Shown here: in pieces, positions 12,735 to 32,060 of the stretch
Numbering within the stretch: the stretch's first letter is position 1
How the letters are laid out: each line of letters opens with the position of its first letter
NCBI GenBank assembly: GCA_963664405.1
Contig: OY761158.1
Location: 4,576,001-4,640,000, forward strand
Direction: 5' to 3'
From: Thermoanaerobaculia bacterium
Lineage (GTDB): Bacteria > Acidobacteriota > Thermoanaerobaculia > Multivoradales > Multivoraceae
Length of the DNA: 64,000 nucleotides
Notes under the pieces: model-generated
What the model saw: only the letters and a program-made list of their open reading frames with translations
The model's database searches: none
What the model was told of the DNA's origin: nothing
Program-made: the position numbers and the translations under genes

Positions 12735-13688
12735 ATGCCAATCGAGACCTCGGAGTGGATTTGGTACAACAGTAGGTGGGTGAAGTGGGAGGAGGCCACC
12801 GTCCATGTCACCGCCCATGCTCTTCACTATGGCTCGAGCGTCTTCGAGGGGGTTCGAGCGTACGAGGGAGACGAGGGCCCGCGCATCTTCCGCCTCGATC
12901 GCCATCTCGAGCGCTTTCTCGACTCCAGCAAGTTGTTGAGGTTCGACATGGGTGAGCACACGATGGAGAGGCTCACTCAGCTTTGTATCGATTTGGTAGC
13001 TCGCAATCGTCACAAGTCCTGCTACATCCGCCCAATCGCCTTCCGCGGAGAGGAGAGCATGGGCCTCTACCCTCTCGACTGTCCGGTCGAGGTCGTCCTC
13101 TTCAGTTTTCCGTGGGGTCCCTATCTCGGAGACGAGGCGATCGAGGATGGAGTCGACGTACAGGTCAGCTCCTGGCGTCGTTTCGCTCCCGGTACCGGCG
13201 CGCCACTTGGGAAGATCGGCGGTCAGTATGTGACCAACCAGTTCGTCTCCATAGAGGCGCGGCAAAACGGCTATGCCGAGGGCATCATGCTGGACAGTTT
13301 CGGATTTGTCAGCGAAGGTGCCGGTGAGAACGTGTTCGTCGTCAAGCGAGGTGAGATCACGACGCCGCCGATCAGTGCCTCGATCTTGTCTGGAGTGACT
13401 CGAGACAGTGTCATCATCCTGGCGCGGGATCTAGGAATCCCAGTCCACTTCGAGAATGTGACTCGAGAGATGCTCTATCTCAGCGACGAGCTCTTCATGA
13501 CCGGCACCGCGGCCGAGGTGAGTCCGGTGCGCTCCGTCGACCAGATTCCGATTGGCGAGGGTACGCGAGGGCCGATCACGAAGCGCTTGCAGGAGGAATT
13601 CTTCAACATCGTCGAGGGAACGATACCCGACCGGCACGGTTGGTTGACCTGCGTGCCACAAATCCAGTCTGTTGCGGTTCAGGACTGA
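12735..13688 (+). CDS. ilvE: Branched-chain amino acid aminotransferase
   Basis: ALHYGSSVFEG, YIRP, KIGGQY, EGAGEN, ILSGVTR, GTAAEV; start chosen at the ATG after AGGAGA. Confidence 0.95.
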   Translation: MPIETSEWIWYNSRWVKWEEATVHVTAHALHYGSSVFEGVRAYEGDEGPRIFRLDRHLERFLDSSKLLRFDMGEHTMERLTQLCIDLVARNRHKSCYIRPIAFRGEESMGLYPLDCPVEVVLFSFPWGPYLGDEAIEDGVDVQVSSWRRFAPGTGAPLGKIGGQYVTNQFVSIEARQNGYAEGIMLDSFGFVSEGAGENVFVVKRGEITTPPISASILSGVTRDSVIILARDLGIPVHFENVTREMLYLSDELFMTGTAAEVSPVRSVDQIPIGEGTRGPITKRLQEEFFNIVEGTIPDRHGWLTCVPQIQSVAVQD

Positions 13689-13719
13689 AGCCACCGGGCT
13701 CTTTGACTAGGAGAATCAG

Positions 13720-15426
13720 ATGAAGCTCACAGGCGCAGAGATCGTTTGGGAGTCACTCCTTCAGGAAGGCTCCGACCTCGTCTTCGGCTATCCGGGAGGG
13801 GCCATCCTCCCGACCTACGATGCTCTCAGCAAGTATCCGCAGATCCATCATGTGCTTACCCGCCACGAGCAGGGAGCCACCCATATGGCCGACGGGTTCG
13901 CGCGTGCGACAGGCAAAGTCGGCGTGGTGATCGCCACCAGCGGCCCGGGGGCGACCAATTTGGTCACCGGCATCGCGACCGCGATGATGGATTCCTCACC
14001 CATCGTGTGCATCACCGGACAGGTGCCGACGGGAGCAATCGGCACTGACGCGTTCCAGGAGACGGATGTGACGGGAATCACCCTGCCGATCACCAAGCAC
14101 AACTATCTGGTCACTGATGTTCGGGATCTGGCGGGAACCATTCGCGAAGCCTTTCATATCGCTCGCACGGGTCGTCCGGGGCCTGTCCTCGTCGACATTC
14201 CCAAGGATGTTCAGATCGCCGAGACTGTTTTCGAGTATCCGAGCGAGCCCATTCGCTTAGCCGGCTACCGGCTTCTCGACGCGCCACCCCCGGAGCAGGT
14301 CGAGGCCGCGATCGGGCTCATCCAGGCCGCTCGGCGGCCGCTGATCCTGGCCGGCCACGGCGTGCTCATGTCGGGTGCTGTTCGAGAGCTCAGAGAGTTT
14401 GCAGAGAAGACCCAGATACCCATTGCCCTGACGCTGTTGGGCAAGGGTGCAATCGCAGAGGGTCACCCGCTTTGCCTCGGAATGATGGGTATGCACGGAG
14501 AGGCCTGCGTGAACAATGCCATTCAAGATGCCGACTTGCTGTTGGCTTTCGGCATGCGCTTCGACGATCGGGTCACCGGCAACCTCGCCACCTACGCGAA
14601 GATCTCGAAGAAGATCCACGTCGACATCGACCCCTCGGAGATCAACAAGAACGTGCCGGTCGATGTAGGCATAGTGGGCGATTTGCGGGCGGTGCTGGCG
14701 CAGCTCATACCGCTGGCGGATCGAGAGGCAGAGGGCGAGTGGATGGACAAGATAAAGGGATGGCAGGGTGAGACCGAAGATCGAGACATCGCCGGCGAGG
14801 AGGGCTCGGACAAGCTTTACGCGGCGCATGTGATCCGAGACCTCTGGCGCTTCACGGACGGTGACGCCGTTACCGTCACCGATGTGGGTCAGCATCAGAT
14901 GTGGGAGGCCCAGTACTACCCCCATGAGCGACCGAACACACTGATCACGAGTGGCGGGCTGGGTACGATGGGTTTCGGGCTTCCTGCGGCGATCGGCGCC
15001 AAGATGGCCAAACCGAGTGAAGAGGTATGGGCGATAGTCGGTGATGGCGGCTTCCAGATGACCATGGCTGAGCTGGCGACGGCGGTTCAAGAGAAGGTCA
15101 ATGTGAAGGTGGCGATCATCAACAACGGCTATCTCGGGATGGTGCGTCAGTGGCAGGAGTTCTTCTACGAAGAGCGCTACAACGCCACTCCGATGATGAA
15201 CCCCGATTTCTGCAAGCTTGCTGAGGCTTATGGAATCCCGGCGATGAAGGTGACGAAGAGATCGGAAATGGAGTCGAGCGTGGCATGGGCCCGCGAGTAC
15301 CAGGACGGGCCGATTCTTGTCGAGTTCGTCGTCGAGAAGCATGACGTGGTCTACCCGATGGTGCCCACGGGTGCGACTCTCAACGAGATGATCCGTCGCC
15401 CCTCTGTCACGCCAGAGATGGTTTGA
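13720..15426 (+). CDS. ilvB: Acetolactate synthase large subunit
   Basis: GYPGGA, RHEQGA, TSGPGATN, RFDDRVTG, GDGGFQM...NNGYLGMVRQWQ. Confidence 0.97.
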   Translation: MKLTGAEIVWESLLQEGSDLVFGYPGGAILPTYDALSKYPQIHHVLTRHEQGATHMADGFARATGKVGVVIATSGPGATNLVTGIATAMMDSSPIVCITGQVPTGAIGTDAFQETDVTGITLPITKHNYLVTDVRDLAGTIREAFHIARTGRPGPVLVDIPKDVQIAETVFEYPSEPIRLAGYRLLDAPPPEQVEAAIGLIQAARRPLILAGHGVLMSGAVRELREFAEKTQIPIALTLLGKGAIAEGHPLCLGMMGMHGEACVNNAIQDADLLLAFGMRFDDRVTGNLATYAKISKKIHVDIDPSEINKNVPVDVGIVGDLRAVLAQLIPLADREAEGEWMDKIKGWQGETEDRDIAGEEGSDKLYAAHVIRDLWRFTDGDAVTVTDVGQHQMWEAQYYPHERPNTLITSGGLGTMGFGLPAAIGAKMAKPSEEVWAIVGDGGFQMTMAELATAVQEKVNVKVAIINNGYLGMVRQWQEFFYEERYNATPMMNPDFCKLAEAYGIPAMKVTKRSEMESSVAWAREYQDGPILVEFVVEKHDVVYPMVPTGATLNEMIRRPSVTPEMV

Positions 15427-15451
15427 ATCGTTCGGGATCATAGAGGTAGAT

Positions 15452-15997
15452 ATGGGTAGACACATCCTTGCCGCATTGGTCGAGAATCGACCCGGCGTGT
15501 TGAGCCGGGTGGCGAACCTCTTTCGTCGACGTAGCTTCAACATCGATAGCCTGACCGTCGGGAGGACCCAGGACGACGACCACTCGCGGATCACTCTGGT
15601 CATGGAGGGCTCGCGCAAAGAAGCGGAGCGCCTAGAGCTGAACCTCTACAAGCTGATCAATGTGCTCGAGGTGGAGCATATGAGCGAGTCGCCTTCACTG
15701 GTGCGCGATCTTGCCCTGATCAAAGTGGCAGTCGACCGCGAGTCGAGGCGAGAAGTGCACCAGCTCACCCAGATTTTCCGCGCCCGAGTCATCGACGTCT
15801 CAGCAGAATCGATGATCATCGAGCTCACCGGTGAGGAGCGAAAGATAGAGAGCTTTGCCGAGCTCCTCAGACCCTTCGGCATTGTCGAGATGGTGCGTAC
15901 CGGGGTCGTCGCCATGGGTCGCGGAGAGCACACCTTGGAGCACGACGGCTATCAGCCCAGGGCCGGCGCCCTCGGCAGTCGTCGTTCAGTGTTGTAA
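15452..15997 (+). CDS. ilvN: Acetolactate synthase small (regulatory) subunit
   Basis: VENRPGVLSRV, FNIDSLTVG, EMVRTG. Confidence 0.95.
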   Translation: MGRHILAALVENRPGVLSRVANLFRRRSFNIDSLTVGRTQDDDHSRITLVMEGSRKEAERLELNLYKLINVLEVEHMSESPSLVRDLALIKVAVDRESRREVHQLTQIFRARVIDVSAESMIIELTGEERKIESFAELLRPFGIVEMVRTGVVAMGRGEHTLEHDGYQPRAGALGSRRSVL

Positions 15998-16030
15998 CTA
16001 GAAAGAGAAGAAAAAAGGGAGAAAGCCTGG

Positions 16031-17041
16031 ATGGCTAAATTGTATTACGACGGCGATGCCGACCTTTCACTGCTCGACGGCAAGACCGTAGCGATTCTGG
16101 GTTACGGGAGTCAGGGTCATGCTCATGCACTCAATCTACGTGACAGCGGCGTCGAGGTCCTCGTAGGTCTTCAGGAGGAGTCGAAGAGTCGCGCGAAGGC
16201 GGAAGCCGAGGGTTTGCGAGTTCTGAGTCCGGCCGAGGCCGTTGCGGCCTCCAGTGTGGTCATGGTTCTGGTCCCCGATACGGCGCAGCACGACCTCTAT
16301 GAGAGCGACATCGCCCCCAATCTGGAAGCCGGAGACACTCTCATGTTCGCTCACGGCTTCAACATCCGCTTCGATGAGATCAAGCCGCCAGCCGAGGTGG
16401 ACGTGAGCATGGTCGCACCCAAGGCTCCGGGTCATCGTGTGCGCGAGGTCTTTCAGGAAGGCGCCGGTACCCCGGGGCTGGTTGCAGTCGAGCAGGACGC
16501 GAGCGGAGGTGCTTTGGCTTTGGCTCTGGCCTATGCCAAGGGCATCGGTTGTACGCGTGCCGGAGTCATCGAGACCACCTTCGCCGAGGAGACCGAGACC
16601 GATCTCTTCGGCGAGCAGGTGGTTCTGTGTGGCGGGGTCTCGGCGCTGGTGCGGGGAGCCTTCGAAACTCTCGTGGACGCCGGCTACCAGCCGGAGATCG
16701 CGTACTTCGAGTGTCTTCACGAGCTCAAGCTGATCGTCGACCTCATGTATGAGGGCGGTCTCAGCTATATGTGGTATTCGGTCTCCGATACTGCCGAGCA
16801 TGGCGGCTACGACGCCGGCGACAAAGTCGTTACAGCCGAGACCCGGGCGGCGATGAAGAAGATTCTCGAAGATATTCAACAGGGCGAGTACGCGAGGGGT
16901 TGGATCGATGAGAATCGGCGCGGCCGCCCTTGGTTCAACGAGAGGCGAGAGCAGGAGCGCTCCCATTCAGTCGAGGCGGTGGGCAAGAAGCTTCGCGCGA
17001 TGATGCCCTTCCTCGATGCCAAGGATCTGGCCAACGTTTGA
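16031..17041 (+). CDS. ilvC: Ketol-acid reductoisomerase
   Basis: [39 protein letters not shown]. Confidence 0.97.
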
Positions 17042-17069
17042 TTGCGTCTCGAGGAAAGGAGGTGGTTCT

Positions 17070-17171
17070 GTGTCAGCAGGTGGCCTTAGTGACGGAGAGC
17101 TTGTGAAGCACACATTTACGGTGCCGAGAGGCCTCGTGACGGAACACACCGCCTTGGCGATCGGCCCATAG
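17070..17171 (+). CDS. Possible 33-aa small ORF between ilvC and leuA
   Basis: Perfect SD AAAGGAGGTG 5 nt before GTG; [33 protein letters not shown]. Confidence 0.35.
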
Positions 17172-17185
17172 CAGAGGTATCGAGT

Positions 17186-18784
17186 ATGACCCAGACTCCG
17201 GATCCCGACGTAGTTCGCATCTTTGACACTACTCTACGCGACGGGGAGCAATCCCCTGGCGCGACCCTGACCAGCGTGGAGAAGCTGGAGATCGCTAGAC
17301 AGCTGTCGATTCTCGGGGTCGACGTCATGGAGGCGGGATTCCCCGCCGCCAGCCCCGACGAGCTGCTCGGGACCAAGAGAATCGCCGAAGAGGTGGGCCG
17401 GCCGGATGGGCCGATCATCGCCGGCCTTGCCCGCACCAGCCGTGGCGACATCGACAAGGCCTGGGAAGCAGTGCAACCGGCAGCCAAGCCTCGTATTCAC
17501 ACCTTCATTGCCACCTCCGAGCTTCATATGGAACGCAAGCTCGAGATGACTCGCGAGCAGGTGGTAGCCCAGGTGCGAGACATGGTGACTTACGCACGAG
17601 GCCTGTGCGAGGATGTCGAGTTCAGCCCGGAGGACGGAAGCCGCTCCGATCGAGACTTCCTGGTCGAGGTGCTCGCGATCGCCATCGAGGCCGGTGCCAC
17701 GACCATCAATGTGCCCGACACGGTCGGGTACGCCACGCCGGAAGAGTATGCGGAGTTGTTTCGATTTCTGATCGCGTCGACTCCCGGCGCGGATGGAGTC
17801 ATCTGGTCAGTTCACTGTCACGACGATCTCGGCATGGCCACCGCCAACAGCATCGCCGGTCTCGCCGCCGGTGCCCGCCAAGCCGAAGTGACAATCAACG
17901 GCATCGGAGAGCGCGCCGGGAACACCAGTCTCGAGGAAGTGGTCATGGCCTTGCGGACACGCCATGGTCAGTACGGCCTGCGCACCGGCATCGAAAGCAC
18001 GCAGCTCACTCGCACCAGCCGAATGGTGAGCAATTACACCGGCATCGCAGTGCCTCCAAACAAGGCTATCGTCGGAGCCAATGCCTTCGCTCATGAAGCC
18101 GGTATCCATCAGGACGGCATGCTCAAAGACGAGCGCACCTACGAGATCATGACGCCGTCGACCGTCGGCCTCGCTGAGAGCAAGCTCGTGCTGGGCAAGC
18201 ACAGCGGTCGCCACGCCTTCCGGCTCCGCATGGCCGAGCTCGGCTTCGAGCTGTCTTCGGGCGATCTCTATCCCGCGTTCCAGCGCTTCAAGCTTCTCGC
18301 GGAGAAGAAGAAAGTGGTCACCGACGCGGATCTCCAGGCACTCGCCACCTCAGAGGTTACGTCGTTGGAGGAGCTCTTCTCGCTGGTCGATCTGCAGGTT
18401 GCGTGTGGCAAATCCGGTATGCCGACAGCAACAGTACGTTTGCGAGGGCCCGAGGGGGTCGAGGAGGTGGCGCCGGCCGTGGGCACCGGTCCGGTGGATG
18501 CTTCGTTTCAGGCCATCAACGCGATTGTTCGACAGGCCACTACTTTGGTTGAATACAGCGTCCACAGCGTTACCGAGGGTATCGATGCCCTCGGGGAGGT
18601 GAGCGTACGAATCAGGTCCGCCGACGGCGACCCCCGTACATTCGGGGGTTACAGTGCCGACACCGACGTCATCATGGCGAGCGCGCAGGCCTATCTGAGC
18701 GCGTTGAATCGGCTCCTCGTGGCGCAGGGGCAGGGAAGTACGGGCCGAGAAACAGGATCCGCGACGGTAAGCGTCGCGCGGTAG
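17186..18784 (+). CDS. leuA: 2-isopropylmalate synthase
   Basis: [47 protein letters not shown]. Confidence 0.97.
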
Positions 18785-18801
18785 GGAGGTTAGAGGCACG
18801 A

Positions 18802-20196
18802 ATGCAGAAGACGCTTCTTGAGAAGGTTTGGGATGGTCACGTCATTCCGGGAACGGGTGAAGACGGCTTACCGGCCGTTCTCTACATCGACCTCCATCTG
18901 ATTCATGAGGTCACCTCACCGCAGGCGTTCGCCGAGCTCGCCGAACGTGGGCTGGAAGTGCGCCGTCCGGATCAGACTCTCGCCACCATGGACCACTCGA
19001 CGCCGACCGATCCTACGATCGATGCAGCGAGATTGAAGGTGCTGGATCCGCAGGGGTTCGCGCAGTTGGAGCGCTTGGCGGAGAACTGCCGCAGGCACGG
19101 CATTCCCGTCTTCGACATGGCTAGCGAGCAGCGCGGCATCGTCCACGTGATCGGTCCGGAGCTGGGGGTCACTCAACCGGGCATGACAATTGTGTGTGGA
19201 GACAGTCACACCAGCACCCATGGCGCTTTCGGAGCACTTGCCTTCGGAATAGGCACCAGTGAGGTGGGGCACGTTCTGGCCACCCAGTGTCTGTTGCAGA
19301 ACCGGCCAAAGACCTTCGAGATTCGTCCAGACGGAGAGCTCCAGCCGGGGGTGACCGCCAAGGACTTGATCCTACATGTCATTTCGACCCTTGGCATTCA
19401 CGGCGGCACCGGACATGTCTTCGAATACCGCGGCGAGGCGATCAGCGCGCTGGGTATGGAAGAGAGGATGACCGTGTGCAATATGTCGATCGAAGGGGGC
19501 GCTCGCGCCGGCATGATCGCACCTGACGAGACTACGATCGAGTATCTTCGCGGTCGAGCTCACGCGCCTCGAGGCGACGCGTGGGAGAGGGCTGAGGAGG
19601 ATTGGCTCGATCTCGCCACCGACGCTGGAGCGGTGTTCGACAGGAGCCTCGCCGTAGACGCAGCCTCATTGGAGCCGATGGTCACATTCGGCACCAACCC
19701 GGGAATGGCGATTCCGGTGAGTGGCGAGATCCCTAGCGATGAAGAGACCTTTGGTAAAGCCCTCGCCTACATGGATCTCGAGGCGGGAGCTCCGATTCTA
19801 GGTCACAAGATCGAAGTGGTCTTTCTCGGCAGCTGCACGAACTCGCGGCTCTCGGACCTGCGTGCGGCGGCTTCCGTGCTCGAGGGGCGACAGGTTGCCA
19901 GGGGTGTCACGATGTTGGTGGTGCCGGGCTCTCAAGACGTCAAGCGTAAAGCGGAGGAGGAGCGCCTCGACGAAGTGTTTCGCGCGGCCGGGGCCCAGTG
20001 GCGGGAGGCGGGTTGCTCGATGTGTCTGGCGATGAACGGGGATCAGCTCGAGCCCGGCCAATACGCCGTCAGCACAAGCAATCGCAATTTCGAGGGACGC
20101 CAGGGGCCGGGTGGTCGCACCTTTCTCGCCAGCCCTCTCACCGCGGCCGCCTCGGCCATTCGCGGGGAAATCGCCGACGTGCGGGAGCTGCTTTGA
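18802..20196 (+). CDS. leuC: 3-isopropylmalate dehydratase large subunit
   Basis: [40 protein letters not shown]. Confidence 0.97.
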
Positions 20197-20807
20197 TGGC
20201 ACGCTTCGATACCCTGACAAGTCGCCTCGCCCCGCTGCCGCTAGACAATGTCGATACCGACCAGATCATTCCGGCCCGGTATCTCAAAGTGATCGACAAG
20301 GAGGGCCTCGGCGAGGGCCTCTTCTCGGCGTGGCGAACACTTCCGGATGGAAGTCGCGACCCCGCTTTCGTGCTCAACCAGAAGAAGTACGAAGGTGCGA
20401 AGATCCTCCTCGCGGGAGACAACTTCGGCTGTGGCAGCTCGAGAGAGCACGCCCCCTGGGCCCTACTGGGAGGAGGCTTCCGAGCCGTCATAAGCCCTCG
20501 CTTTGCGGATATCTTTCGCAATAACTCACTCAAGAACGGGCTCTTGATCGTTGAGGTCAGTCAGTCTGTCTACCGCCGCCTGCTAGCGCAGGTGGAAGCG
20601 GACCCTGTGGTAGAGGTCACCCTCGACCTGTCGCAAGAGCTCCTCTTCTTACCCGACGGCGAAGAGGTGTCTTTTCCTATCGACAGCTTCTCGCGACGTT
20701 GTTTGCTCGACGGCGTCGACCAACTCGGCTATCTCTTCGACCAGCTCGGCGCCATCGAGAGCTTCGAGCAGAGTCACGAGCCCCGAGTTAGGACCACTGA
20801 CTCCTAG
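20196..20807 (+). CDS. leuD: 3-isopropylmalate dehydratase small subunit
   Basis: NVDTDQIIPA, NFGCGSSREHA, FADIFRNN; ATG overlaps the leuC stop (TGATG). Confidence 0.96.
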   Translation: MARFDTLTSRLAPLPLDNVDTDQIIPARYLKVIDKEGLGEGLFSAWRTLPDGSRDPAFVLNQKKYEGAKILLAGDNFGCGSSREHAPWALLGGGFRAVISPRFADIFRNNSLKNGLLIVEVSQSVYRRLLAQVEADPVVEVTLDLSQELLFLPDGEEVSFPIDSFSRRCLLDGVDQLGYLFDQLGAIESFEQSHEPRVRTTDS

Positions 20808-20816
20808 GGGAGCGCG

Positions 20817-21944
20817 ATGGGCGAAACGAATCAGCGAGCCAGGATTGTCCGTTTGCCGGGAGACGGCGTGGGCCCCGAGGTTCTCGGCGAAGGATGCCGG
20901 GTCCTGTCACTGGTGGCGGAGAGACGCGGCCTAATGCTGGATTTCGACGAGGCTCCGATCGGTGGCTGTGCTATCGACGCTTCGGGTAGTGCATTGCCGG
21001 ACGAGAGCGTCGCCATTTGTGAGAAGGCTGATGCGCTCTTCTTAGGAGCTGTCGGAGGGCCGAAGTGGTCGGATCCGACAGCGCCGGTTCGTCCTGAGCA
21101 GGGCCTTCTGGAGCTGCGTCGGCATTTCGGTCTTTTCGCCAACCTGCGACCCGTGCCGGTTTATGAGGGATTGCTCGACCTGACGCCGATCAAGGCCGAG
21201 CTCGCTCGAGGTGTCGACATCTTATTTGTTCGCGAGTTGACCGGCGGCATCTATTTCGGTCCACGGCTCGAACAGGGTGAAGGCACGACGGCGTCGGACA
21301 CCCTGGTTTATAGCTCGGACGAGGTGGAGCGGGTCGCTCGGGTCGCGTTTGAGGCCGCGAAGGATCGCCGCGGCAAAGTGACCTCGGTGGACAAGGCCAA
21401 TGTCCTGGCCTCGATGCGACTGTGGCGGCGGACCGTCGAGGTCGTCGCCAGAGACTATCCGGAGGTGGAGCTGGAGCACGTTCTGGTGGATGCCTGCGCC
21501 ATGCATCTGATCAGGACGCCGGCGACCTTCGACGTGATTCTGGCGGGGAACCTGTTTGGCGACATTCTCAGCGACGAAGCCTCGGTCCTTTCCGGCTCGC
21601 TTGGGATGTTGCCGTCAGCTTCTCTCGGCGACGGCCCAATGGGTCTCTACGAGCCGGTTCACGGGTCCGCTCCCGACATCGCAGGGCAAGGCATTGCCAA
21701 CCCTGTCGGCGCGATCCTGTCGGCGGCGATGTTGCTGCGCTTCAGTCTCGGTCGCGAGCAAGAGGCCTTGGCAGTCGAGGCCGCCGTAGCACGCACTTTG
21801 GACGACGGCATACGCACCTCGGATCTTGGATTGTCGGGCGCTAGCGGAGCCTCGACCCGAGAGATGGGTGACGCGATCTTGCAGCGCCTCGACGCCATCC
21901 TCACCGACCACTCATCGAGAGGTTGTCCCGGCGTCAGAGGATGA
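20817..21944 (+). CDS. leuB: 3-isopropylmalate dehydrogenase
   Basis: [49 protein letters not shown]. Confidence 0.97.
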
Positions 21945-23985
21945 CCGCTTCGGCTCCCAGATCTGCTATGAGATCGTCGAAGCGTTGCAGGATGGCGTCC
22001 CAGCGATCGAAGAGGCTCTTGAGCTCAGCGGGTCTCAGATAGGGCTCGAGTCGCTCCTCGACAGCGCCGCGATCCGCTGTCCGCAGCTTCTCCCAGAGCT
22101 CGCGCTCGCAGCGACTGAGCTTGGCGATCGCTTCCTCGCTGTGCTCGCTGAAGAAGGATCGACCGTGGTCGATGAGCCAGACCTTCCACTCGGAGTCGAT
22201 GAGATAGTTGCCTGGGTTGCGATCGTGATTGTTGATCAGGGCGTCGAAGACATCAACTTCTCCCATCTGGCGCGACCAGTCCCTGATATCGGGTGGCCGA
22301 AGCCCTTCTGAGCGCCTCCGCCCTTCGGTCATTGCATTCTCCAGCCAAGCCTGGATCGACCCCTTGGCGCCTTTGTAGGATCTTGGCGCGGTTGGCGGAA
22401 CGCGGTCGAGGCTGAGGATACGATCGAGCTCGTAGGCCGCGGTATCGAAGGCGTAGCTATCGCGGAAGTGCCGGTAGAACTTGCCGTCCCCGATCTTCTT
22501 GTTGCGGTGCTCCAGGTCTACATCACGGAAGATGGCGCGGGCTCGGATGCCGTCGCGCTCCAGCTCTACACGAATCGGCTGATTGATCCCTTCCTTGCTC
22601 CGCTTTCCGGACTTGACAGCGGCGGTACTGAGAAACTCCAGCAGCTGCTCGGCACTGCCAAAGGGTAGGGGCGCGCCATCGGCACCGGCCCATGACCAGG
22701 GCTGCGTCGTGGTCGCGACAGCAGCAGCGGGTGCCCCGCTCGCCGACAGGCTCAGGCGTTGACGGGGCGGCTCTTCGCTCTCCTTCCACAGCGGCACTCT
22801 GTTGTTCTTGTAGATCGCGGTGAAGGCACCATCCTGGATCTCGAGAGCGGAGGCCTGCCCACGATAGGTCGAGGTCAGCATGCCGGTGTCGATCAGGAAG
22901 ATTCGGCCGTCGAAACGCACACCGATTTCGCGATCGGTCTGCACATTGTGGCCCACGACGATGTGCTTCGTTCCTTGGGCCGCCAGGACCGCGTCAGTTA
23001 GCGCCGGTCCCTCCTCGTCACTCCAACCCGCCTCTCCTCCGGGCTCGGGAACGGAGTCTCGGTAGCCGCGGAACCAGAGCGGTCCCTCCGGAGCAAACAG
23101 ATACCACTCTTCGTAGTTGCTGCATTGGCTGAGCGTTTCGAGCTGTGAGACTTCGATCTCGCTGAGCCCCTTGTTCTGCTGTTTGACCTGGAGGCCGTTC
23201 AGCGTCGCGAAGCCCGACTGGATGAGGTCGGCAGTTGTCGATGTCAGGGTGAGATAACCCTCTCCGCGTAGCAGTGCGCGGCAGGCGTCTAGGTTCGCCA
23301 CTTCTTCGTGCACCTGCCGGTTGATGTCTTCGATCGGGCGAGCGCCGACCTCAGGGGTGAGACCGGCGTGGAGAAAGAGGGCGTTATCGACGCGAACGAT
23401 TGCGGGCAGGCCTCTGAGCCAGCTCCCGTACTTCCCTTCGGGCAGGAGTTGCTGGAGGTAGGCGATGGTTCCTTCAGGGTTCGCCTTCGACCACAGCTCG
23501 CGCTCGCTGGTGCCGAAGGCCGGACGCGGCAACGACAGCAATTTGGCTCGGTTGCGTGCGGCGCGGACCATGCTCTTGTACTCTTCGTCGCGCTTCGCCG
23601 TCGTGCTCTCGTCTGCGAAGTGACCGAGCGCTTCGGCGCTGACGTCTCTGAGCTCACCGACCAGATTCAGGGCTTCGTGGTTCCCCATCAGAACCTCGAC
23701 CCGACCTCCGGCGGCCGCCGCCTCTCGCTGGAGTCGCATCAGCAGGTCCATGACCTCGCGCACGCCCGGCCCCCGATCGGTGAAGTCGCCGGTTTGGACG
23801 AGGGTGCTATCGCCCCCCGACCACGTGAGCTTCTCGTCGATGAGGCCGCTGGCGATGAGAATCTCCACCAGCTCGTCGTAGGCGCCATGAATATCGCCAA
23901 TGGCGACGGTGCGGGCCCCAAGAACCGCGGCCGGCAACGAAAAGAGGAGGAGTACAAGTGCGGCGACGCGAGCGCCTGAGATCAT
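21934..23985 (-). CDS. Exported fusion of a calcineurin-like metallophosphoesterase and a PI3/4-kinase-like (atypical kinase) domain
   Basis: Signal peptide; phosphatase motifs GDIHG, GDFTDRG, GNHE, HAG, GH, IDTGM; C-terminal AAYELDRIL...[34 protein letters not shown]. Confidence 0.85.
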
Positions 23986-25025
23986 GGCGCCACCTGCTGG
24001 AGCATCGTTCCTTCGCGAGCGATCTGTGCCGCGGCCTCGACCCAGTGGTCATCGCTGTTCAGAGAAGGAACCAGGCGGAGCTCTTGGCCCCCATGATCGA
24101 TGAAGTCCTGCCTGGCGCGGATGGCGATCTCTTCGAGGGTCTCGAGACAGTCGGCAACGAAGGCCGGAGAGAGAACGGCCAGCCGCTTCACGCCTTTCCT
24201 GGCGAGAGCCGGAACCCTGAGATCTGTGTAGGGCTTGATCCAAGGGTCGCGGCCGAGCCGAGATTGGAATGTCACCTCGTATTGACTCTCGTCGAGGCCG
24301 ACGAGCCTGGCGATGCCGCGGGCGGTCGCAAAGCACTGGGCCCGGTAGCAATTCCGGTTGGCGGCGACGATCGTGTCGCAACACCCATCGCCGAGACAGT
24401 GAGCGCCGTCGGACTCGTCGCTCTTGGTGACATGCCGCTCCGGCAGACCGTGGAAGCTCATGAGCGTAAAGTCTGGGGCGAAATGCTCGTGCACCCGCTT
24501 GGTCTGCTCCGCGAAGGATGCAAGGAATGCGGGATGATCGTAGAAGGGCGGCACGACTTGAATCGACGGTATGTTCCAGAATACCGACGCTTCTTCCATC
24601 ACCTTTTCAACGGCCGATCCCCAAGCCGCCGAGGAGTACTGGGGGAAGAGGGGGAAGACCACAAGCTTGTCGAGCGCCAGCTCGCGTAGGCGAATGAGAG
24701 CTTGGCGGATCGATGGGTTCTTGTAACGCATGGCGAGCTCGATTGCGACCTCGGGGCCGAGCTTCTTCTGGAGCTTTTTGGCCAGATCCTGCCCATGGAA
24801 AAGGAGAGGTGATCCGCGGTCGGTCCAGATCTGGCCGTATGCTTCGGCGGACTTGCGAGGCCGAAACGGAAGAATGAACAGATTGAGCACCAGCGCTCGC
24901 TGGATCGGGTGCACATCGAGCACGCGAGGGTCGGAGAGGAACTCTCGGAGGTAGCTGCGCACCTCGGCGGTACTGGGGCTGTCGGGAGTCCCGAGGTTGA
25001 CAAGGAGTAGGCCGTAGCGTGGCAC
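23982..25025 (-). CDS. hemH: Ferrochelatase
   Basis: LLVNLGTP, YLREFLSD, SFHGLP, FQSRLG, FVADCLETLEEI. Confidence 0.95.
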   Translation of the reverse strand: MPRYGLLLVNLGTPDSPSTAEVRSYLREFLSDPRVLDVHPIQRALVLNLFILPFRPRKSAEAYGQIWTDRGSPLLFHGQDLAKKLQKKLGPEVAIELAMRYKNPSIRQALIRLRELALDKLVVFPLFPQYSSAAWGSAVEKVMEEASVFWNIPSIQVVPPFYDHPAFLASFAEQTKRVHEHFAPDFTLMSFHGLPERHVTKSDESDGAHCLGDGCCDTIVAANRNCYRAQCFATARGIARLVGLDESQYEVTFQSRLGRDPWIKPYTDLRVPALARKGVKRLAVLSPAFVADCLETLEEIAIRARQDFIDHGGQELRLVPSLNSDDHWVEAAAQIAREGTMLQQVAP

Positions 25026-25086
25026 GGGGCGATCAAGTCTAGCAGTCAGTTGCCGGCCGCGCTTCGAGAAAAACTTGCTTCAAGCG

Positions 25087-27969
25087 TCACGCATGTGAGG
25101 TATTAGAGATACTTAGAACCCACCGAGCGGTTTCTTCGAGAAGAGGATCCGCGGGTCCTCGGGCGACCGATTCGACGAGCGGAGTGAGTCCTCTGATTTC
25201 CTCCTCGTGGACGAAGCTCAGTGCGGCCGCTCCCAGCCAGAGGCCGACGGCGTCGGAGTCTCTGGCTCCCTGGATGAGGTTGCGGACGATGTCCTGCTTC
25301 TCGCCGTGACTGATGTGGAATAACCGCTGAGCCTCGGCCAGACGCTCGTCGGAGGGTATGTCGTCGACCACGGCCAGCGTGTGCCGGCGGATGGACGGAG
25401 GGAGACTGTTATCGAGATACTCGAGAGCATGACCTCTCATCCTGGTGTCGGAGCTCTTGAGCTGTTCGAAAGCGGTGAGCCTTTCGTGTCGACTCTCCAC
25501 CATCGAGAGTAGAGCGAAGAGATTCGCCGAGTGGTCGGAGAGACGATCCATCAGCAGTTCCTGAAGCAGGGTTGGTGGCCGCTGGGAGCGCCAGCGGAGG
25601 CGGATTCCCCGAACGGAAAGCTCCCCGGGTCTCGAGATCGGGATCAGACGGGAGAAGGCACGGAGATAGAGTCTGGTCTCTTCTATGGCGTGCCTCTCGA
25701 CCACATGGCGATCGAAGCGGAGGCTCGGATCCTGGTCATGCAGTGAGGCCAGCGATGCGATGATCTTTCCGTTGAGGAAGGCGTCGTCGGTCGGGAGGCT
25801 GTCGATCAGGGCGTTCTTTGCGGCCTCTCCGCCGATGCGCGCGATGGTCTTGGGGAGGGCGCGCCGGATCCAGTAGAACTCTCTGGGGTCGGTCATGAAG
25901 TGGGCGAGTGCAGGGATCACCGCTTCGCCGCTGGCGACGAGGGCGTTGCGCACCTCGTGCTTCAGGCGCCGCTTCCTGAGCAGAGAGGTCAGAACCGGAA
26001 CGAATAGGTAGTTCACGCCGTCGCGCTCAATCTGTTGCAGCGCGCTGGCGATGGCTGCGCGAAGCACCTCGAGATCGGAGTCCGACAGCAGATGAAGAAG
26101 GCCAGCATGGGAGTCGGCGCCGCCGATAGAGCCCAGAGCTTGCGCCGCCGCCTCCCGGGTCTTGGGGTCGGCATCTCTGAGCATCCCGGCGAGCGCTCCC
26201 TGCGCTCGCTCGCCGATCTCTGGCTCGTTCTCGATCTGGAGGAGGCAGACGATGGCGGCGGCTCGCACCCGCTTGTCGGGGTCGCGCAGGCGGGGAACCA
26301 TCAGCGCAGAGATGTCTGTATCGGTGAGCGTTGCAAGCGTGCGCACCGCATCCACGCGCACGTCCGGATCGTTGTCGGCGACCAGGCGCTCGACCAGTGA
26401 CCGGGCGTCTCGACGTCCCAGATCGCTCAACAGGGCCAGGGTGCGGCGCCGGACCAGGGGGTCGTCGTGAAGAAGGAGCAGCGGCGGGACCAGGCGTCCG
26501 CGTCCCTGCGACGTCAACAGGTCGAGGCTGTGGAGCACTTCCCCCGAGTCCGCGCTTCCCAGTGAGCTGACAAGGACTTCCAGCGTGGTCACGTCAGAGG
26601 GATCGAGGCGCTCGTCGGGATCGATCCTTCTGGCCAACAGGCCCTCGCGAAAGATGGCGACGTAGTTCTTCCGCACGATGATGGTCAAAGCGAGCCAGGC
26701 AGCGACCAGAACCAGCACGGCCCAGCCCGTCTGGACCGGCGACACCCAGCCGAAGGTCACGCTCAACAGGAGCACCCCTGCTCCCGCCTTGGCGAATCGT
26801 TGCACCAGCACGTCGATGTAGGCCTTGATTCTGGGGCGGATGTTCAGGGGGACAGGAACGTAGAGAAGCTCTCTCGTGCCCTGGTCCAAGGAGTAGCGGA
26901 GCGCGCCCTCGCTGACTTTGAGCCCCGCCACCGCGGCGACGAGGAGGGAGGGCAACACAGCCGCGGAAAACAGCACGAGCATGGTGCCCAGGCCCATACA
27001 GACCGGCAGCACGCGGAGCGCGAAGCCCACGCCAAGCACCCGATGGACTCTCGAAGTCACCACCAGCTGCAACACCAGGGCGACCAAAGCGCTCAAACTG
27101 AAGAGGTTCCCGAACAGGCGGGTTCTTTGGTCCAGGAGGTCGGTGGACTGCTGGACGACCCAATTGAACTGCAGGTCGATGAACTGCGCCACGATGATGC
27201 TCACGAACATCAGCCCGGCAACCGCGAGGAGGTGTGGGGATTGGCGGATGGTGGCGAAGTCGCCGCGAGTGGCCTCCACCTTCGGCTCGGGTCGAGGCAT
27301 GGTGGTGGTTGCGTACGCGACCGTCTTGTTACCGTCGTGGATGCGGCGCACGAACGCCAGTGTTCCGAGTAACAGCAGGGTGGAGGCCAGGAGGGTGGCC
27401 CGGGTCTCCAGGAAGACGGAGCTCCAGCGGGCAACCTGACCGCCGATGACGCCGCCGAGGAGTCCCCCGGAGAGTACGAGGCCGAAGAGGCGGCGGGCTT
27501 GTCGTGGGTGGAGTAGTTGGCCGGCCCAGCTCCAGAACTGGCTGAAGAGAAGCAGGGTGACGATCGAGATCCAGATGTAGAAGACGAAGCTGACCCAGGG
27601 CCACGGGTAGGCGTAGAGAGACCAGAAGACCAACAGGGTCGCGACGACGACCAGGGTTGTCCACGAGATCAGCCGCTCGAGCGGGGCTCGTGCCGCTGCG
27701 CGGCTGTACCCTCGAAGAACCGGATAGGCGAAGAGAGCGACTACCACATAGACGATCGGTAGGCGCTCAAAGCCGAGGCTGTCCACGAAGGAGGATTGAC
27801 GGACGCTCTTGGCGGCGAATTGGAAGGCGCCGAGAAGAACGCAGTAGCCGAAGAGGGAGCCTACGAGGCCGGCTTCCTCCTGCCGAACGTCGAAGCCGAT
27901 TCGCGCGAGAGCCCGCCAAGGCCATCCAGTGGCTCTATGGGCCCCAGCCGGTTTTAGACTTCGGTCCAC
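25087..27969 (-). CDS. Npt1/Npt2 (TLC ATP/ADP translocase-like) MFS transporter fused to HEAT repeats
   Basis: About 12 TM N-terminal half with KSVRQSSF, QFWS...RQARRLFG, IDLQF, LRYSLDQGTRELLYVPVP, KAYIDV; C-terminal DPxVR HEAT-like repeats. Confidence 0.88.
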   Translation of the reverse strand: MDRSLKPAGAHRATGWPWRALARIGFDVRQEEAGLVGSLFGYCVLLGAFQFAAKSVRQSSFVDSLGFERLPIVYVVVALFAYPVLRGYSRAAARAPLERLISWTTLVVVATLLVFWSLYAYPWPWVSFVFYIWISIVTLLLFSQFWSWAGQLLHPRQARRLFGLVLSGGLLGGVIGGQVARWSSVFLETRATLLASTLLLLGTLAFVRRIHDGNKTVAYATTTMPRPEPKVEATRGDFATIRQSPHLLAVAGLMFVSIIVAQFIDLQFNWVVQQSTDLLDQRTRLFGNLFSLSALVALVLQLVVTSRVHRVLGVGFALRVLPVCMGLGTMLVLFSAAVLPSLLVAAVAGLKVSEGALRYSLDQGTRELLYVPVPLNIRPRIKAYIDVLVQRFAKAGAGVLLLSVTFGWVSPVQTGWAVLVLVAAWLALTIIVRKNYVAIFREGLLARRIDPDERLDPSDVTTLEVLVSSLGSADSGEVLHSLDLLTSQGRGRLVPPLLLLHDDPLVRRRTLALLSDLGRRDARSLVERLVADNDPDVRVDAVRTLATLTDTDISALMVPRLRDPDKRVRAAAIVCLLQIENEPEIGERAQGALAGMLRDADPKTREAAAQALGSIGGADSHAGLLHLLSDSDLEVLRAAIASALQQIERDGVNYLFVPVLTSLLRKRRLKHEVRNALVASGEAVIPALAHFMTDPREFYWIRRALPKTIARIGGEAAKNALIDSLPTDDAFLNGKIIASLASLHDQDPSLRFDRHVVERHAIEETRLYLRAFSRLIPISRPGELSVRGIRLRWRSQRPPTLLQELLMDRLSDHSANLFALLSMVESRHERLTAFEQLKSSDTRMRGHALEYLDNSLPPSIRRHTLAVVDDIPSDERLAEAQRLFHISHGEKQDIVRNLIQGARDSDAVGLWLGAAALSFVHEEEIRGLTPLVESVARGPADPLLEETARWVLSISNTSHA

Positions 27970-27976
27970 TAGCCGA

Positions 27977-28801
27977 CTAGTCTGCAGGTAGCATCAACAC
28001 CGCCGGATCGATCCGTGCTCCACGCCAACGAAGACCGAAGTGTAGATGAGGGCCCGTCACCCTTCCGGTGCTACCGACCCTGCCGATAGCTTTGCCGCCT
28101 TCGACTTTTTCGCCGGCCTCGACATCGATCCGGCTGAGATGCATATACATACTGATCAGTCCGTCTCCGTGGTCGATGAAGACGCTGTTGCCGCCGAAGA
28201 AGTGCTCCTCCGCAAGCACTACCTCGCCGGCCGCGGCGGCCAGTACCGTAGTGCCTGTCGAGGCCTTGTAGTCTTCGCCGCTGTGAGGGCTGCGCGGCTG
28301 GCCGTTGAAGACCCTTTTGGAGCCGAAGCTGGTGCCGGGTCGCGGATCTTTGATCGGGTGTGCAAGCGGAATCTCGAACTGTCTACCGGTGTCGCGATCC
28401 CACAGGGCATCGATCTGAGCTCTCTCCTCACCGGCGCGAGTGAGATTGGCCTCTGACAAGTTGACCTGGCCGTCGTCGCTCACCCGCAGATGCTGCACGC
28501 GATAGGGATAATCACCCAGCTTTACCGTGGCCGACTCTTGCGCTCCATTGCGACGGCGATGGATGGCAAGCTCGCCGCTGCGGTCGAGGTCGATCGGGAA
28601 GTAACAAGTGTCTCCGTGAGGGAGCCAGGAGCGGTCGTCCGCCGAGCAGCTTTCGGTGTCGGCTGCGACCCAACGAACGACGGTGCCGGCAACAGCGGAG
28701 ATGGGCTCGTCCTCGGCCACGAGGCCGGGTGCGAGAAGCGCGATTCCGAGAGCCGAGAGTACGAGGCTCGCCGCGAGTGGGCATCTGTTGCGGGTTGTCA
28801 T
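27977..28801 (-). CDS. Exported M23-family metallopeptidase
   Basis: Signal peptide; HSGED, IDHGDG, YMHL, GSTGRVTGPHLHF. Confidence 0.93.
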   Translation of the reverse strand: MTTRNRCPLAASLVLSALGIALLAPGLVAEDEPISAVAGTVVRWVAADTESCSADDRSWLPHGDTCYFPIDLDRSGELAIHRRRNGAQESATVKLGDYPYRVQHLRVSDDGQVNLSEANLTRAGEERAQIDALWDRDTGRQFEIPLAHPIKDPRPGTSFGSKRVFNGQPRSPHSGEDYKASTGTTVLAAAAGEVVLAEEHFFGGNSVFIDHGDGLISMYMHLSRIDVEAGEKVEGGKAIGRVGSTGRVTGPHLHFGLRWRGARIDPAVLMLPAD

Positions 28802-28840
28802 GGTGGGGTCGGCTTGCTCTGCCGGATCGTAGCACCGGCC

Positions 28841-29128
28841 CTAAGGATCCAGCATGACAGTCGCTCTTCCCTGCTCGGCGATAAGCGCGCGGAAGTGGAC
28901 GAGGATTCGCTACCGGTCGGTGAGATCGCCGGTCTGCACCAAGGTCGTGTCGTCGCCGGACCAGGTGAGCTTGTCGTCGACCAGACCGGTGGTGCGAAGG
29001 ATCTCCACCAGCTCGCCGTAGGCACCGTGGATGTCACCGATGGCGACGGTACGCCCCGCGGACGCCGTGGCCGGCAGCGACGAGAGAATGAGTGCCGCCG
29101 CTGCGATCCGACCCAACGCCGAGCTCAT
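28841..29128 (-). pseudogene. Internally deleted paralog of the phosphatase-kinase fusion
   Basis: Signal peptide plus [12 protein letters not shown]...TLVQTGDLTDR, then TAG, then in-frame RILVHFRALIAEQGRATVMLDP, which matches the intact copy's C-terminus [20 protein letters not shown]. Confidence 0.85.
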
Positions 29129-29547
29129 CAGGAATCCCGGTCGACTTCGGGCTCTGAGAGAAATTCGCGAAATAGTGCCTTGACGATCTCGATGTTGTGA
29201 GAGAGCAGGTCGAAGAAGTCGTCGGCCTCGACAGCCAGGGTCACGGTAGAGCACTGGGCGGTAGCTCTGGAGGAGTGCAGGCGTCCGCTGAGGATCTCCC
29301 TCGCTCCGAATGTCTGGCGAGAGAGGGCACGCCGTGCCCCATCACTCGTGCCCACGAGCTCCACCTCACCCTCGACGACGCAGTAGAAGGCGTCCGCCGG
29401 CTCGTTGATGCCATAGACCTCCTCCCCTTCTTCGAAGTGTCGCTCACTGGAGATGCCGGCGATGCGCACAACCTCCTCGGCGCTGCAGTGGCTGAAGATG
29501 TCGACATTGCGCAGCATCATCACCTTTTCGATCTGGGCGAGCTTCAC
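29128..29547 (-). CDS. Stand-alone cyclic nucleotide-binding domain protein
   Basis: IEKVMMLRNVDIFS, FYCVVEGEV, TFGAREIL; no HTH. Confidence 0.85.
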   Translation of the reverse strand: MKLAQIEKVMMLRNVDIFSHCSAEEVVRIAGISSERHFEEGEEVYGINEPADAFYCVVEGEVELVGTSDGARRALSRQTFGAREILSGRLHSSRATAQCSTVTLAVEADDFFDLLSHNIEIVKALFREFLSEPEVDRDS

Positions 29548-29578
29548 GAGGCCGCCCAGTCTACCAGCCGGCCGAGTC

Positions 29579-30334
29579 TCAGATTCCTAACAAGCGGCGC
29601 TGGTTGTCTTCTATCGCCTCGAACACTTCTTCCTCCGAGGTCTCCTTGAGACGGGCGATCTCGGACAGGCTTATGCGCACATTCGCCGGCTCGTTACGCT
29701 CGCCCGGAGTCGGACCCAGTACCGGACTGTCGGTCTCGACCAGGAGGCAGGATAGCGGCAGACGCCGCACCAACTTCTGCTTCTGGGGAGAGCGCACCAC
29801 CGACGGCGGCACCGAGAAGTAGAAGCCGGCTTCGACTCCAGGGAGTGCCTTGGCGGCGCGGCCGTCGAAGGCATGAAGGAGAGCTTTCCTCGCTCCGGCT
29901 TCGAGTAAGAGGGCGATGGCGGCGCCGCCGGCAGAGCGTGAGTGAATGTTGAGGGGCAGGTCGGTCTCCGTCGATAGGCGGATGAAGCGAAGGAAGATCT
30001 CGCTTTGTAGCTCCCTTTGGGCAGGCTCTTTGACCTTCCAGTGGTCGAGACCGACCTCACCGATCGCCACCAGACGATCACGCTCGCGTCGAATGAGCTC
30101 TAGCATCTGCTCGGCCTCGCCCAGGTCCAGGATCGTCGGGTAGAGGCCGGCGGTAGGGCGGATGATGTCGGGGTGCGCCTCGGCCAGGTCGAGGTTCTTC
30201 TGTGCATCGTCGAGCGTTTCGCCGACACAGACGACTGCCCCTACCCCGGAGGCGCGGGCGCGCTCGAGAACCGCGGAGCGATCCTCGTCGAAGACCGGGT
30301 CGCAGAGATGGGCATGTACGTCGACGAGGGGCAT
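29579..30334 (-). CDS. TatD-family DNase/hydrolase
   Basis: DVHAH, IGEVGLD, IHSR, LLHAF, VETDSP; start moved to MPLVD. Confidence 0.92.
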   Translation of the reverse strand: MPLVDVHAHLCDPVFDEDRSAVLERARASGVGAVVCVGETLDDAQKNLDLAEAHPDIIRPTAGLYPTILDLGEAEQMLELIRRERDRLVAIGEVGLDHWKVKEPAQRELQSEIFLRFIRLSTETDLPLNIHSRSAGGAAIALLLEAGARKALLHAFDGRAAKALPGVEAGFYFSVPPSVVRSPQKQKLVRRLPLSCLLVETDSPVLGPTPGERNEPANVRISLSEIARLKETSEEEVFEAIEDNQRRLLGI

Positions 30335-30350
30335 CGGCTCGGGTCGATGG

Positions 30351-31259
30351 CTAGGCGTCTCGGGACCGGGCTCTGTCCTCGAGCTCTTCGAGAGTGCGGG
30401 GCCAGTCCTTCTTGAGAAGACGGGAGAGGGCGCGATCGGCCAGAAGGCGCCCACGGTTCTGGCAGCGAGCGCAGTAATTGCACTCGTTCTCGGCATAGAC
30501 GATGCGCTGAACCGGCGAGCCGCAGTCAGGGCAGGGCTCGCGAAAGCGCCCGTGAACGGCCATTCCCGCGCGAAAGGCGGTTACCTTTTTGGGAAAGGTA
30601 ACGCCGGTCTCCTGCTCCAGTCGACTCTTCCACTCTTCCAGAACATCACGGGTGGCGACGTAGAGGCGCTCCAATTCTTCCTCGGAGAGCCGGGAGCTCA
30701 GCTTCATCGGTGAGAGTCTGGCGCGGTGCAGAATCTCGTCGGAATAAGCGTTGCCGATCCCCGACAGGATCCGGGGGTCGGTGAGGGCTCGCTTGAGAGT
30801 GTGGTTCTCTCGCGTCAATGCGGCGCCGAAGTGCGCCGCGTCTGTCGCCAATACCTCGAGCCCTCCACGGTCGAAGGCAGCGAGAGATTCTCTGCCGCGG
30901 ACGACGTGAAGGGATGCCCTCTTCTTGGAGCCCGCCTCTCGTAGGAGGAGGGTGCCCGGGGCAAAGTCGAAAGCGGCGAGCCCGACTTTCATCGGCAGTC
31001 GCGCACCGCTCGCGAGCCAGAGGAATCGCCCAGCGATCATCAGATGGATCACCAGAAAGAGGTCGCCTTCGAGCTCGACGATGATGCGCTTGCCGAGGCG
31101 ACTGACACCGGTGACGGTCAACCCCTCGGCGTCGGAGAGCGGTGGGTCTACTGAGCGCAGGACGAACGGGCTACCGAGCCGCGTCCGCTCCAGGATCTCG
31201 CCGACGATACGAGCTCGGAGCGCTCCGAGGTAGACCTCGATATCCGGCAGCTCGGGCAC
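30351..31259 (-). CDS. Fpg/Nei-family DNA glycosylase
   Basis: MPELPDIE, HLMIAG, SGIGNAYSDEIL, C-terminal CPDC...CARCQ zinc finger. Confidence 0.92.
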   Translation of the reverse strand: MPELPDIEVYLGALRARIVGEILERTRLGSPFVLRSVDPPLSDAEGLTVTGVSRLGKRIIVELEGDLFLVIHLMIAGRFLWLASGARLPMKVGLAAFDFAPGTLLLREAGSKKRASLHVVRGRESLAAFDRGGLEVLATDAAHFGAALTRENHTLKRALTDPRILSGIGNAYSDEILHRARLSPMKLSSRLSEEELERLYVATRDVLEEWKSRLEQETGVTFPKKVTAFRAGMAVHGRFREPCPDCGSPVQRIVYAENECNYCARCQNRGRLLADRALSRLLKKDWPRTLEELEDRARSRDA

Positions 31260-31879: not shown

Positions 31880-32060
31880 AGACGTCTGCTCCCAGAGCGC
31901 GGATTGTATCCCGGGCTACGCAAATGATCGCTATCATGATCGCTGTCATGAAGGTCAGACAATTGGCCGCTTCGCGAGGTGTGAAAGCGGCACGCAGCCT
32001 CATGTGGGAGCATCGTCGGGGACTCAGGCTGGTTCAATAACAGCAGGGACGGAGGGATAG

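Follow-up and report, generated by a model that had tools for sequence, protein, structure and literature searches.

Enzymes that hold opposing kinase and phosphatase activities in one chain include PNKP, AceK and HPrK/P, and bacterial Pnkp has a metallophosphoesterase domain. Here we analyse P0001, a probably exported polypeptide that joins a phosphatase to a kinase-like domain and is encoded in a 64,000-nucleotide stretch of the genome of a Thermoanaerobaculia bacterium (assembly GCA_963664405.1, contig OY761158.1, positions 4,576,001 to 4,640,000; hereafter the window). Unlike P0001, PNKP, AceK and HPrK/P are cytoplasmic and have other kinase folds or one shared site, and the match of P0001 to Pnkp is weak. 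The phosphatase domain resembles the Shewanella cold-active tyrosine phosphatase and related Shewanella-like phosphatases (Shelphs; PDB 1v73, 2z72), while the kinase domain resembles the Fam20 kinases of the secretory pathway, which phosphorylate secreted proteins or xylose (Fam20A/B/C; PF06702; PDB 5yh0, 5xom, 4kqa) and the type II phosphatidylinositol 4-kinases (PI4KII; PF00454; PDB 4pla, 4hnd). A partner gene encodes a nucleotide carrier of the NTT-HEAT group, whose members, with or without a domain for cyclic-nucleotide binding (cNBD), are described as widespread and uncharacterised, with roles in ATP uptake or exchange proposed for them (Major, Embley and Williams 2017, PMC5381601). The fusion architecture is real, conserved and built from known folds, and it is apparently undescribed. 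In the simplest account that uses all of the parts, to which we give a probability of about 0.4, P0001 would be a periplasmic writer/eraser pair fed with ATP by the NTT-HEAT carrier. The gene is organised as follows, in window coordinates:

21934..23985, minus strand: phosphatase-kinase fusion gene (P0001), 683 residues; an open reading frame whose ATG overlaps the hemH stop (ATGA)
23917..23985, minus strand: residues 1-23, a Sec-type signal-peptide-like segment without a lipobox Cys, called by a hydrophobicity heuristic
22777..23916, minus strand: residues 24-403, a Shewanella-like (Shelph-type) PPP metallophosphoesterase, from motifs, Pfam, Foldseek and sequence search
22699..22776, minus strand: residues 404-429, an Ala/Thr/Pro linker of low confidence in the full-length model (predicted local distance difference test, pLDDT, below 50)
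21934..22698, minus strand: residues 430-683, a Fam20/PI4KII-like kinase domain, from profile and structure comparisons

The sequence-only reading of this locus had proposed a single exported polypeptide, and the data agree: one open reading frame encodes all 683 residues, with an N-terminal hydrophobic segment at residues 7-17. The export call is a hydrophobicity heuristic only, an 11-residue Kyte-Doolittle window with a mean of at least 2.0 as criterion; the mean for P0001 was 3.0, and no further membrane segment was found. Of the relatives whose N-terminus was scorable, 43 of 44 fused and 70 of 75 standalone ones had a signal-like segment, compared with 1 of 11 presumed cytoplasmic proteins of the window. 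Judged from these N-termini, P0001 is very probably exported. The linker is disordered in the full-length model and variable among aligned relatives. The motifs on either side of it (D31-x-H33, GDFTDRG 66-72, GNHE 101-104, FLHAG 204-208, GH 345-346 and IDTG 365-368 in the N-terminal domain; AIFR 484-487, YAFD 511-514, DRNPGN 588-593 and IDHG 605-608 in the C-terminal one) form a set far beyond chance. In a Pfam scan Metallophos alone exceeded its cut-off, with PI3_PI4_kinase, HipA_2 and Fam20C below threshold, and the names found in existing annotation were "metallophosphoesterase" or "hypothetical", as had been anticipated. All 47 family hits of 605-2000 residues carry PF00149 and 5 of the 47 also have a precomputed PF00454, so automated pipelines sometimes detect both domains.

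The phosphatase domain is a Shewanella-like enzyme with an intact metal-binding set, as the motifs had indicated. It scored 44.1 bits against Pfam Metallophos (cut-off 21.5), and for residues 24-403 the Shewanella cold-active phosphatase was the top match both in a sequence search of the PDB (E 1.3e-24) and in Foldseek (E 1.4e-17). The four signatures of bacterial-type PPP enzymes, GDxHG, GDxxDRG, GNH(E/D) and (I/L/V)D(S/T)G (PMC535813), are all present. Shelphs carry an insert lying between the GNHE motif and the H(A/G)G motif (PMC535813), and about 100 residues separate GNHE from HAG in P0001. Long helical inserts are a feature of the domain; P0001 differs from the Shewanella enzymes in a second one after HAG and in its C-terminal kinase domain. 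Metal and catalytic residues were kept in 45-46 of 46 full-length fusions. Among these 46, Cys235 and Cys288 co-vary (both in 9, neither in 36, one only in 1), which fits the pattern expected of a possible disulfide, with kin sharing states. For bacterial enzymes of this group the substrate is described as not predictable from sequence (PMC535813).

Modelling and Foldseek, the check that the sequence-only reading had suggested for residues 430-683, returned a kinase fold. The model, built from a 92-sequence alignment, had a pLDDT of 96.3 and a predicted template-modelling score of 0.92. Among 48,161 representative chains its best fold match was DrFam20C1 (Z 20.0, root-mean-square deviation 2.9 Å, 231 residues aligned), and further matches were hydra Fam20 (Z 19.7) and C. 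elegans Fam20 (Z 18.6); PI4KII-alpha lay only 1.6 Z units under Fam20 (Z 18.4, 3.5 Å, 218 aligned), and the bacterial atypical kinases CtkA, HipA and CotH gave Z 15.8, 11.7 and 11.0. Foldseek ranks 1-11 were all Fam20. The kinase family profile matched Fam20 sequences at E 5e-16 to 1e-7 (Fam20A 4.9e-16) and PI4KII at E 0.004. The profile was needed because a single-sequence PDB search found Fam20 at E 0.012 only, ranked under spurious designed-protein matches. The earlier assignment to a PI3/4-kinase/HipA/CtkA-type fold thus stood in part: the domain has an atypical kinase fold with PI4KII near to it, but its nearest relative is Fam20, not HipA or CtkA. Membership of the HipA-like/CtkA group was rejected (PF20613 13.9 against 27 bits, with both Z values below those of Fam20 and PI4KII), as was membership of the SCO1664 family (TIGR03843, 52.2 bits against a cut-off of 172.4; E 5e-14). 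CtkA, HipA, CotH and SCO1664 belong to the same broad kinase-fold clade as P0001, and their matches either miss the family cut-offs or lie far under that to Fam20; we know of none that is fused to a phosphatase or neighbours a carrier. One of them, CotH, is a bacterial extracytoplasmic kinase that has been likened to Fam20C (PMC12189002).

P0001 shares with Fam20 the catalytic and metal Asp, a further acidic metal ligand that precedes alphaC by five residues, similar C-terminal helices and, as predicted here, export, in which it differs from the cytosolic PI4KII enzymes. From fold, profile and residue register we therefore predict a minimal Fam20/PI4KII kinase. It differs from Fam20 in being bacterial and phosphatase-fused, in having the canonical Asn in the catalytic loop and, with its family, in having Arg or His for the beta3 Lys. 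The N-lobe insertion domain, named as a Fam20 feature (PMC5865150), is absent: about 20 profile positions (148-169) span about 93 residues of the Fam20A chain (201-295). Its PF06702 score was 14.4 (gathering cut-off 26.8 bits) and its PF00454 score 18.2 (cut-off 27.1 bits). Because of the beta3 Lys, the insertion domain and the Pfam score, we place the domain outside Fam20 proper.

The kinase-domain search returned 2706 clusters at 50% identity, 1206 of them at E 1e-10. Residue counts come from 158 proteins (58 phosphatase fusions, of which some are partial, 95 standalone proteins and 5 others), the cluster search contributing the best 150 of the 2706; statements on taxonomy rest on 79 genomic loci and the Atlas, where look-alikes are mostly Acidobacteriota and one Myxococcota cluster has PF06702 on 22% of members. 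The register was taken from profile alignment to Fam20C, with the Fam20C numbering of PMC4421793, rather than from inspection of model coordinates. The key residues of the kinase domain are R472 (beta2), R487 (beta3), D509 (Fam20C E306 position), D514 (alphaC), D588 (catalytic), N593 and D606 (metal). R487 and D514 fall on Fam20C K285 and E311, the beta3-Lys and alphaC-Glu positions to which they had been assigned by eye, and D509, D588 and D606 on E306, D458 and D478. D509, D588 and D606 were each present in 158 of 158 proteins and N593 in 154. D509 aligns without gaps to human Fam20C E306, and hydra Fam20 has an Asp there too; Fam20A is a pseudokinase because it has lost the acid equivalent to E306 (PMC4421793). 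With this triad invariant and the Asn kept, the suggestion of a pseudokinase is disfavoured for the clade, the absent beta3 Lys notwithstanding, and the P0001 domain is, on conservation, somewhat likely to be an active kinase.

Position 487 is Arg in 122 proteins, His in 25, Lys in 8 and another residue in 3; Lys forms are probably under-sampled, since the 158 are top matches to an Arg-bearing query. Its strongest coupling is to position 514 (0.41, next 0.13, uncorrected for kinship), with the pairs R-E in 116, H-Q in 20, R-D in 6, K-E in 6, H-N in 4, K-D in 2 and others in 4. The K285-E311 ion pair of Fam20C is thus replaced by R487-D514 in P0001, and across the family the beta3 Arg or His would pair structurally with an alphaC Glu or Gln. 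A compensated Arg-Asp salt bridge, as first proposed, did not hold up as a family trait: Arg occurs with Asp in only 6 of 158, and the Asp is a local variant. The beta2 position is basic (K or R) in 143 of 158, and this residue may share the phosphate-binding role. Other architectures were seen among the relatives: a kinase domain together with a Laminin G-like one (P0009), a tandem kinase-kinase (P0010) and, in L030:9514-11973, a kinase domain after a stretch that looks by eye like a prolyl oligopeptidase, which may be a read-through of two genes.

The conserved link between the fusion and an NTT-HEAT gene is an addition to the sequence-only reading. Two partner genes lie in the window:

25087..27969, minus strand: NTT (TLC family) nucleotide-carrier domain plus HEAT repeats, 960 residues, the partner gene, from PF03219 and profile
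29128..29547, minus strand: stand-alone cyclic nucleotide monophosphate (cNMP)-binding-fold protein, 139 residues, which joins the module as its third gene in 11 of the 21 loci with fusion and NTT

The carrier matches PF03219 (28.2 and 33.1 bits, cut-off 21), as do 21 of 22 aligned carrier domains, and the carrier profile matches solved chlamydial and plastid ATP/ADP carriers (PDB 9j3n and 9j3j) at E 1.8e-34 and 7.3e-30; homology to NTT is firm, ATP/ADP exchange is not. The architecture is that described for NTT-HEAT(-cNBD) proteins in PMC5381601, with the cNBD as a separate gene in the window; the accessible text of that paper mentions no kinase or phosphatase neighbour. The cNMP-fold protein scored 46.7 bits against PF00027 (cut-off 27.5). 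In its phosphate-binding cassette, where Glu and Arg are what we take to be the marks of cNMP-binding proteins, inspection by eye found Glu absent in 13 of 13 and Arg present in 11 of 13, with His in the window protein. A complex prediction for the carrier and kinase domains scored 0.00 and was used neither way.

For the neighbourhood counts, GTDB genomes were scanned for the pattern WLIDHTR[SAT]F, which gave 222 matches; the best 80 yielded the 79 loci (68 Acidobacteriota, 4 deltaproteobacterial lineages, 7 without assignment). The fusion was present in 27 loci, 21 of which have an NTT-HEAT gene, always on the same strand (21/21) and in 19 within 1.6 kb of the fusion. Carrier and fusion are separated in L026 and L047 by phosphatase and kinase genes on the opposite strand; these clusters (L026:5885-13722, L047:5898-16405) comprise a carrier and a standalone phosphatase together with 2-4 standalone kinases and a fusion with a degenerate kinase site. 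Four of the six fusion loci without a carrier have less than 2.5 kb on one side, and L025 and L042 are real exceptions. Among loci with at least 2.5 kb on both sides, a carrier was found in 16 of 18 with a fusion and in 3 of 26 standalone loci (Fisher p 3e-7). Two gene orders occur: in 11 loci the order is carrier, cNMP-fold gene and then fusion, and in 10 it is fusion and then carrier, with no cNMP gene; the two orders go with two divergent carrier subgroups about 27-31% identical to each other, in at least two classes and with flanks that otherwise change. At least one kinase with the acidic triad was found in each of the 28 loci that have a carrier, the third Asp being preselected by the search pattern. 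In the window itself all three genes are present, with hemH and an M23 peptidase gene interspersed, whereas in L001, the nearest syntenic relative (Acidobacteriota, Thermoanaerobaculia; about 63-73% DNA identity), the cNMP gene and the full fusion are adjacent. Taken with its neighbours, the fusion is likely to be functionally coupled to the carrier. Two related clusters encode 359-residue proteins (L065:8715-9794, L071:8716-9795) with a signal-like segment, the first phosphatase-like motif and then the kinase domain, which seem to be fusions that have lost the phosphatase; these clusters hold two carrier genes and three kinases.

The observed parts of the writer/eraser account are the two computed folds, a phosphatase whose ligands are intact, a kinase domain whose acidic triad is conserved, and the linkage of the genes; export, catalysis, transport direction and substrate are its inferred parts. 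P0001 would be exported by Sec into the periplasm of a diderm bacterium and act there as a tethered pair, in which the Fam20-like domain would use ATP to phosphorylate an envelope substrate, be it a protein, a glycan or a lipid head group, and the dimetal PPP domain would take off the phosphate so added. The co-encoded inner-membrane NTT-HEAT carrier would supply the nucleotide, most simply ATP out and ADP in, with its cytoplasmic HEAT and cNMP-fold parts gating it. ATP export as the nature of the coupling seems to us close to an even bet.

Several results weigh against this account. In the kinase domain, only 8 of 158 proteins retain the beta3 Lys, and Lys-to-Arg at this position cripples canonical kinases. 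The catalytic Asp is lost in 4 of 41 new long hits (P0196-P0199) and in the L026 and L047 fusions, with the domain retained; P0197-P0199, distant fusions of which one is named from Steroidobacteraceae, keep the architecture and have lost both kinase aspartates. A kinase-like domain that is non- or barely catalytic, serving as a periplasmic nucleotide sensor that regulates the phosphatase or signals inward through the NTT-HEAT protein as a receptor-like transporter, would fit these catalytically dead domains, the Lys replaced in 150 of 158 and a window carrier without the K155 and E245 equivalents, and the ATP-binding, non-catalytic Fam20A is a precedent (PMC4421793). Such a sensor leaves unaccounted for the three invariant acidic positions in the near relatives, including the one lost by Fam20A, and the 95 of 158 relatives that stand alone with no phosphatase in cis to regulate; we consider it unlikely.

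The carrier raises a second difficulty for ATP export. At the transport residues described as crucial in AtNTT1, K155, E245, E385 and K527 (PMC10654386), the window carrier has Y74, S135, D265 and K394, keeping K527 and an Asp for E385 and lacking K155 and E245, and 22 carriers divide equally at the K527 position, 11 having Lys and 11 Asp; these equivalents are counted at a constant offset from the profile alignment, in which the K155 stretch aligns weakly. Characterised NTTs, moreover, import nucleotides (PMC5381601). The exported phosphoesterase, possibly with the kinase, might then convert outside nucleotides or phosphorylated compounds for NTT import, with flux inward. Bacterial PPPs are broad in specificity and include ApaH (PMC535813), to which P0001 has weak matches, and the carrier is tied more to the phosphatase-bearing form than to standalone kinases (the 16 of 18 against 3 of 26 well-flanked loci above). 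Scavenging of this kind would leave the conserved kinase active site without a clear role; in L045, L065 and L071 a carrier neighbours kinase genes, with no phosphatase match in the fetched DNA, and in the readable part of the top shared neighbour clusters no gene for nucleotide salvage recurs. We rate it as a minor and rather improbable alternative to a carrier that feeds the kinase.

The linkage itself is the third point. Of the 52 standalone-only loci, 7 have a carrier and 45 have none nearby, though their kinases look exported; in L048, L036, L049 and L054 the same genome, by accession, holds a carrier-linked locus elsewhere, which fits one carrier serving several kinases. A tree-aware, independent-pairs test of fusion against carrier adjacency had 4 pairs and was not significant (median p 1), so the Fisher value overstates the case. 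This result, the concentration of 68 of 79 loci in one phylum and the carrier-less, well-covered fusions L025 and L042 would agree with a real exported kinase-phosphatase whose adjacency to NTT-HEAT is inherited gene order without function, its ATP coming from elsewhere. Set against that are the pair's persistence in two opposite gene orders, the low identity of the carriers, the spread over at least two classes and the changing of other neighbours, and we find inherited order quite improbable.

The remaining features of the window lie outside this module:

23982..25025, minus strand: ferrochelatase hemH, located between the carrier gene and the fusion gene; a passenger, found in 1 of 79 related loci
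27977..28801, minus strand: M23 peptidase, outside the conserved core (3 of 79 related loci)
28910..29128, minus strand: truncated paralog of the fusion gene, 72 codons, comprising the signal segment and first two phosphatase motifs and then a stop, from codon comparison

Core-gene status was rejected for hemH and M23 at these counts, and likewise for TatD (2/79) and Fpg (3/79). The truncated paralog starts at the stop of the cNMP-fold gene and is coupled to it. Over 48 codons compared with the fusion gene, 18 are identical, 20 synonymous and 10 non-synonymous, and 23 of 34 differences fall at third positions; because this divergence shows purifying selection, the paralog is the stump of a once-functional duplicate. 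A complete ilvE-ilvB-ilvN-ilvC-leuA-leuC-leuD-leuB run (12693-21944, plus strand; names by eye except leuB) converges on the fusion gene with an 11-bp overlap, an arrangement also found in L001. Three intergenic copies of a roughly 168-bp element (37065-37233, 38882-39051 and 41300-41466), 90-93% identical and with terminal inverted repeats of about 21 bp, look like a miniature inverted-repeat transposable element, and a shorter related piece lies at 39104-39173. Positions 21000-33000 contained no sigma-70-like promoter and fewer terminator-like sites than shuffled sequences, and Rfam gave no match in 20000-43000. The phage collection gave no match and the plasmid collection one, at 24%, to an 11.9-Mb Nonomuraea record.

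In the open-access literature, which leaves most subscription papers outside, we found no description of the kinase family, the fusion or the module. None of the 72 families in the KINtaro list (PMC10870513), compared by names only and as far as that source was available, is recognisable as that of P0001. The word "bacteria" is absent from the available text of PMC5865150.

The periplasm is generally held to lack ATP. In an engineered periplasmic kinase selection, the plates contained 2.5 mM ATP (PMC5038940). If a conserved, exported kinase comes with a nucleotide carrier of its own, periplasmic ATP-driven chemistry becomes testable with two or three genes, and the pairing puts on offer a first concrete role for the NTT-HEAT proteins, uncharacterised in PMC5381601. 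The family-wide switch from Lys to Arg or His, with its co-varying partner, is an unusual natural experiment on a kinase active site. Thousands of compact bacterial Fam20-like domains also bear on the origin of Fam20, because the FAM20 cluster has been called eukaryote- or metazoan-specific, with some Legionella families placed near FAM20/CotH (PMC9758233). More tentatively, Acidobacteriota and some other diderms may carry out ATP-dependent reversible phosphorylation in the periplasm, with NTT-HEAT proteins exporting the ATP that a large family of exported Arg/His Fam20-like kinases consumes and with the fusion protein as the central writer/eraser. If true, bacteria would have their own counterpart to the secretory-pathway kinases of eukaryotes, the orphan NTT-HEAT proteins would gain a function, and the findings would point to a relative of the Fam20 lineage among bacteria. 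Should the export of ATP to a kinase in the periplasm be confirmed, it would be a new kind of bacterial system.

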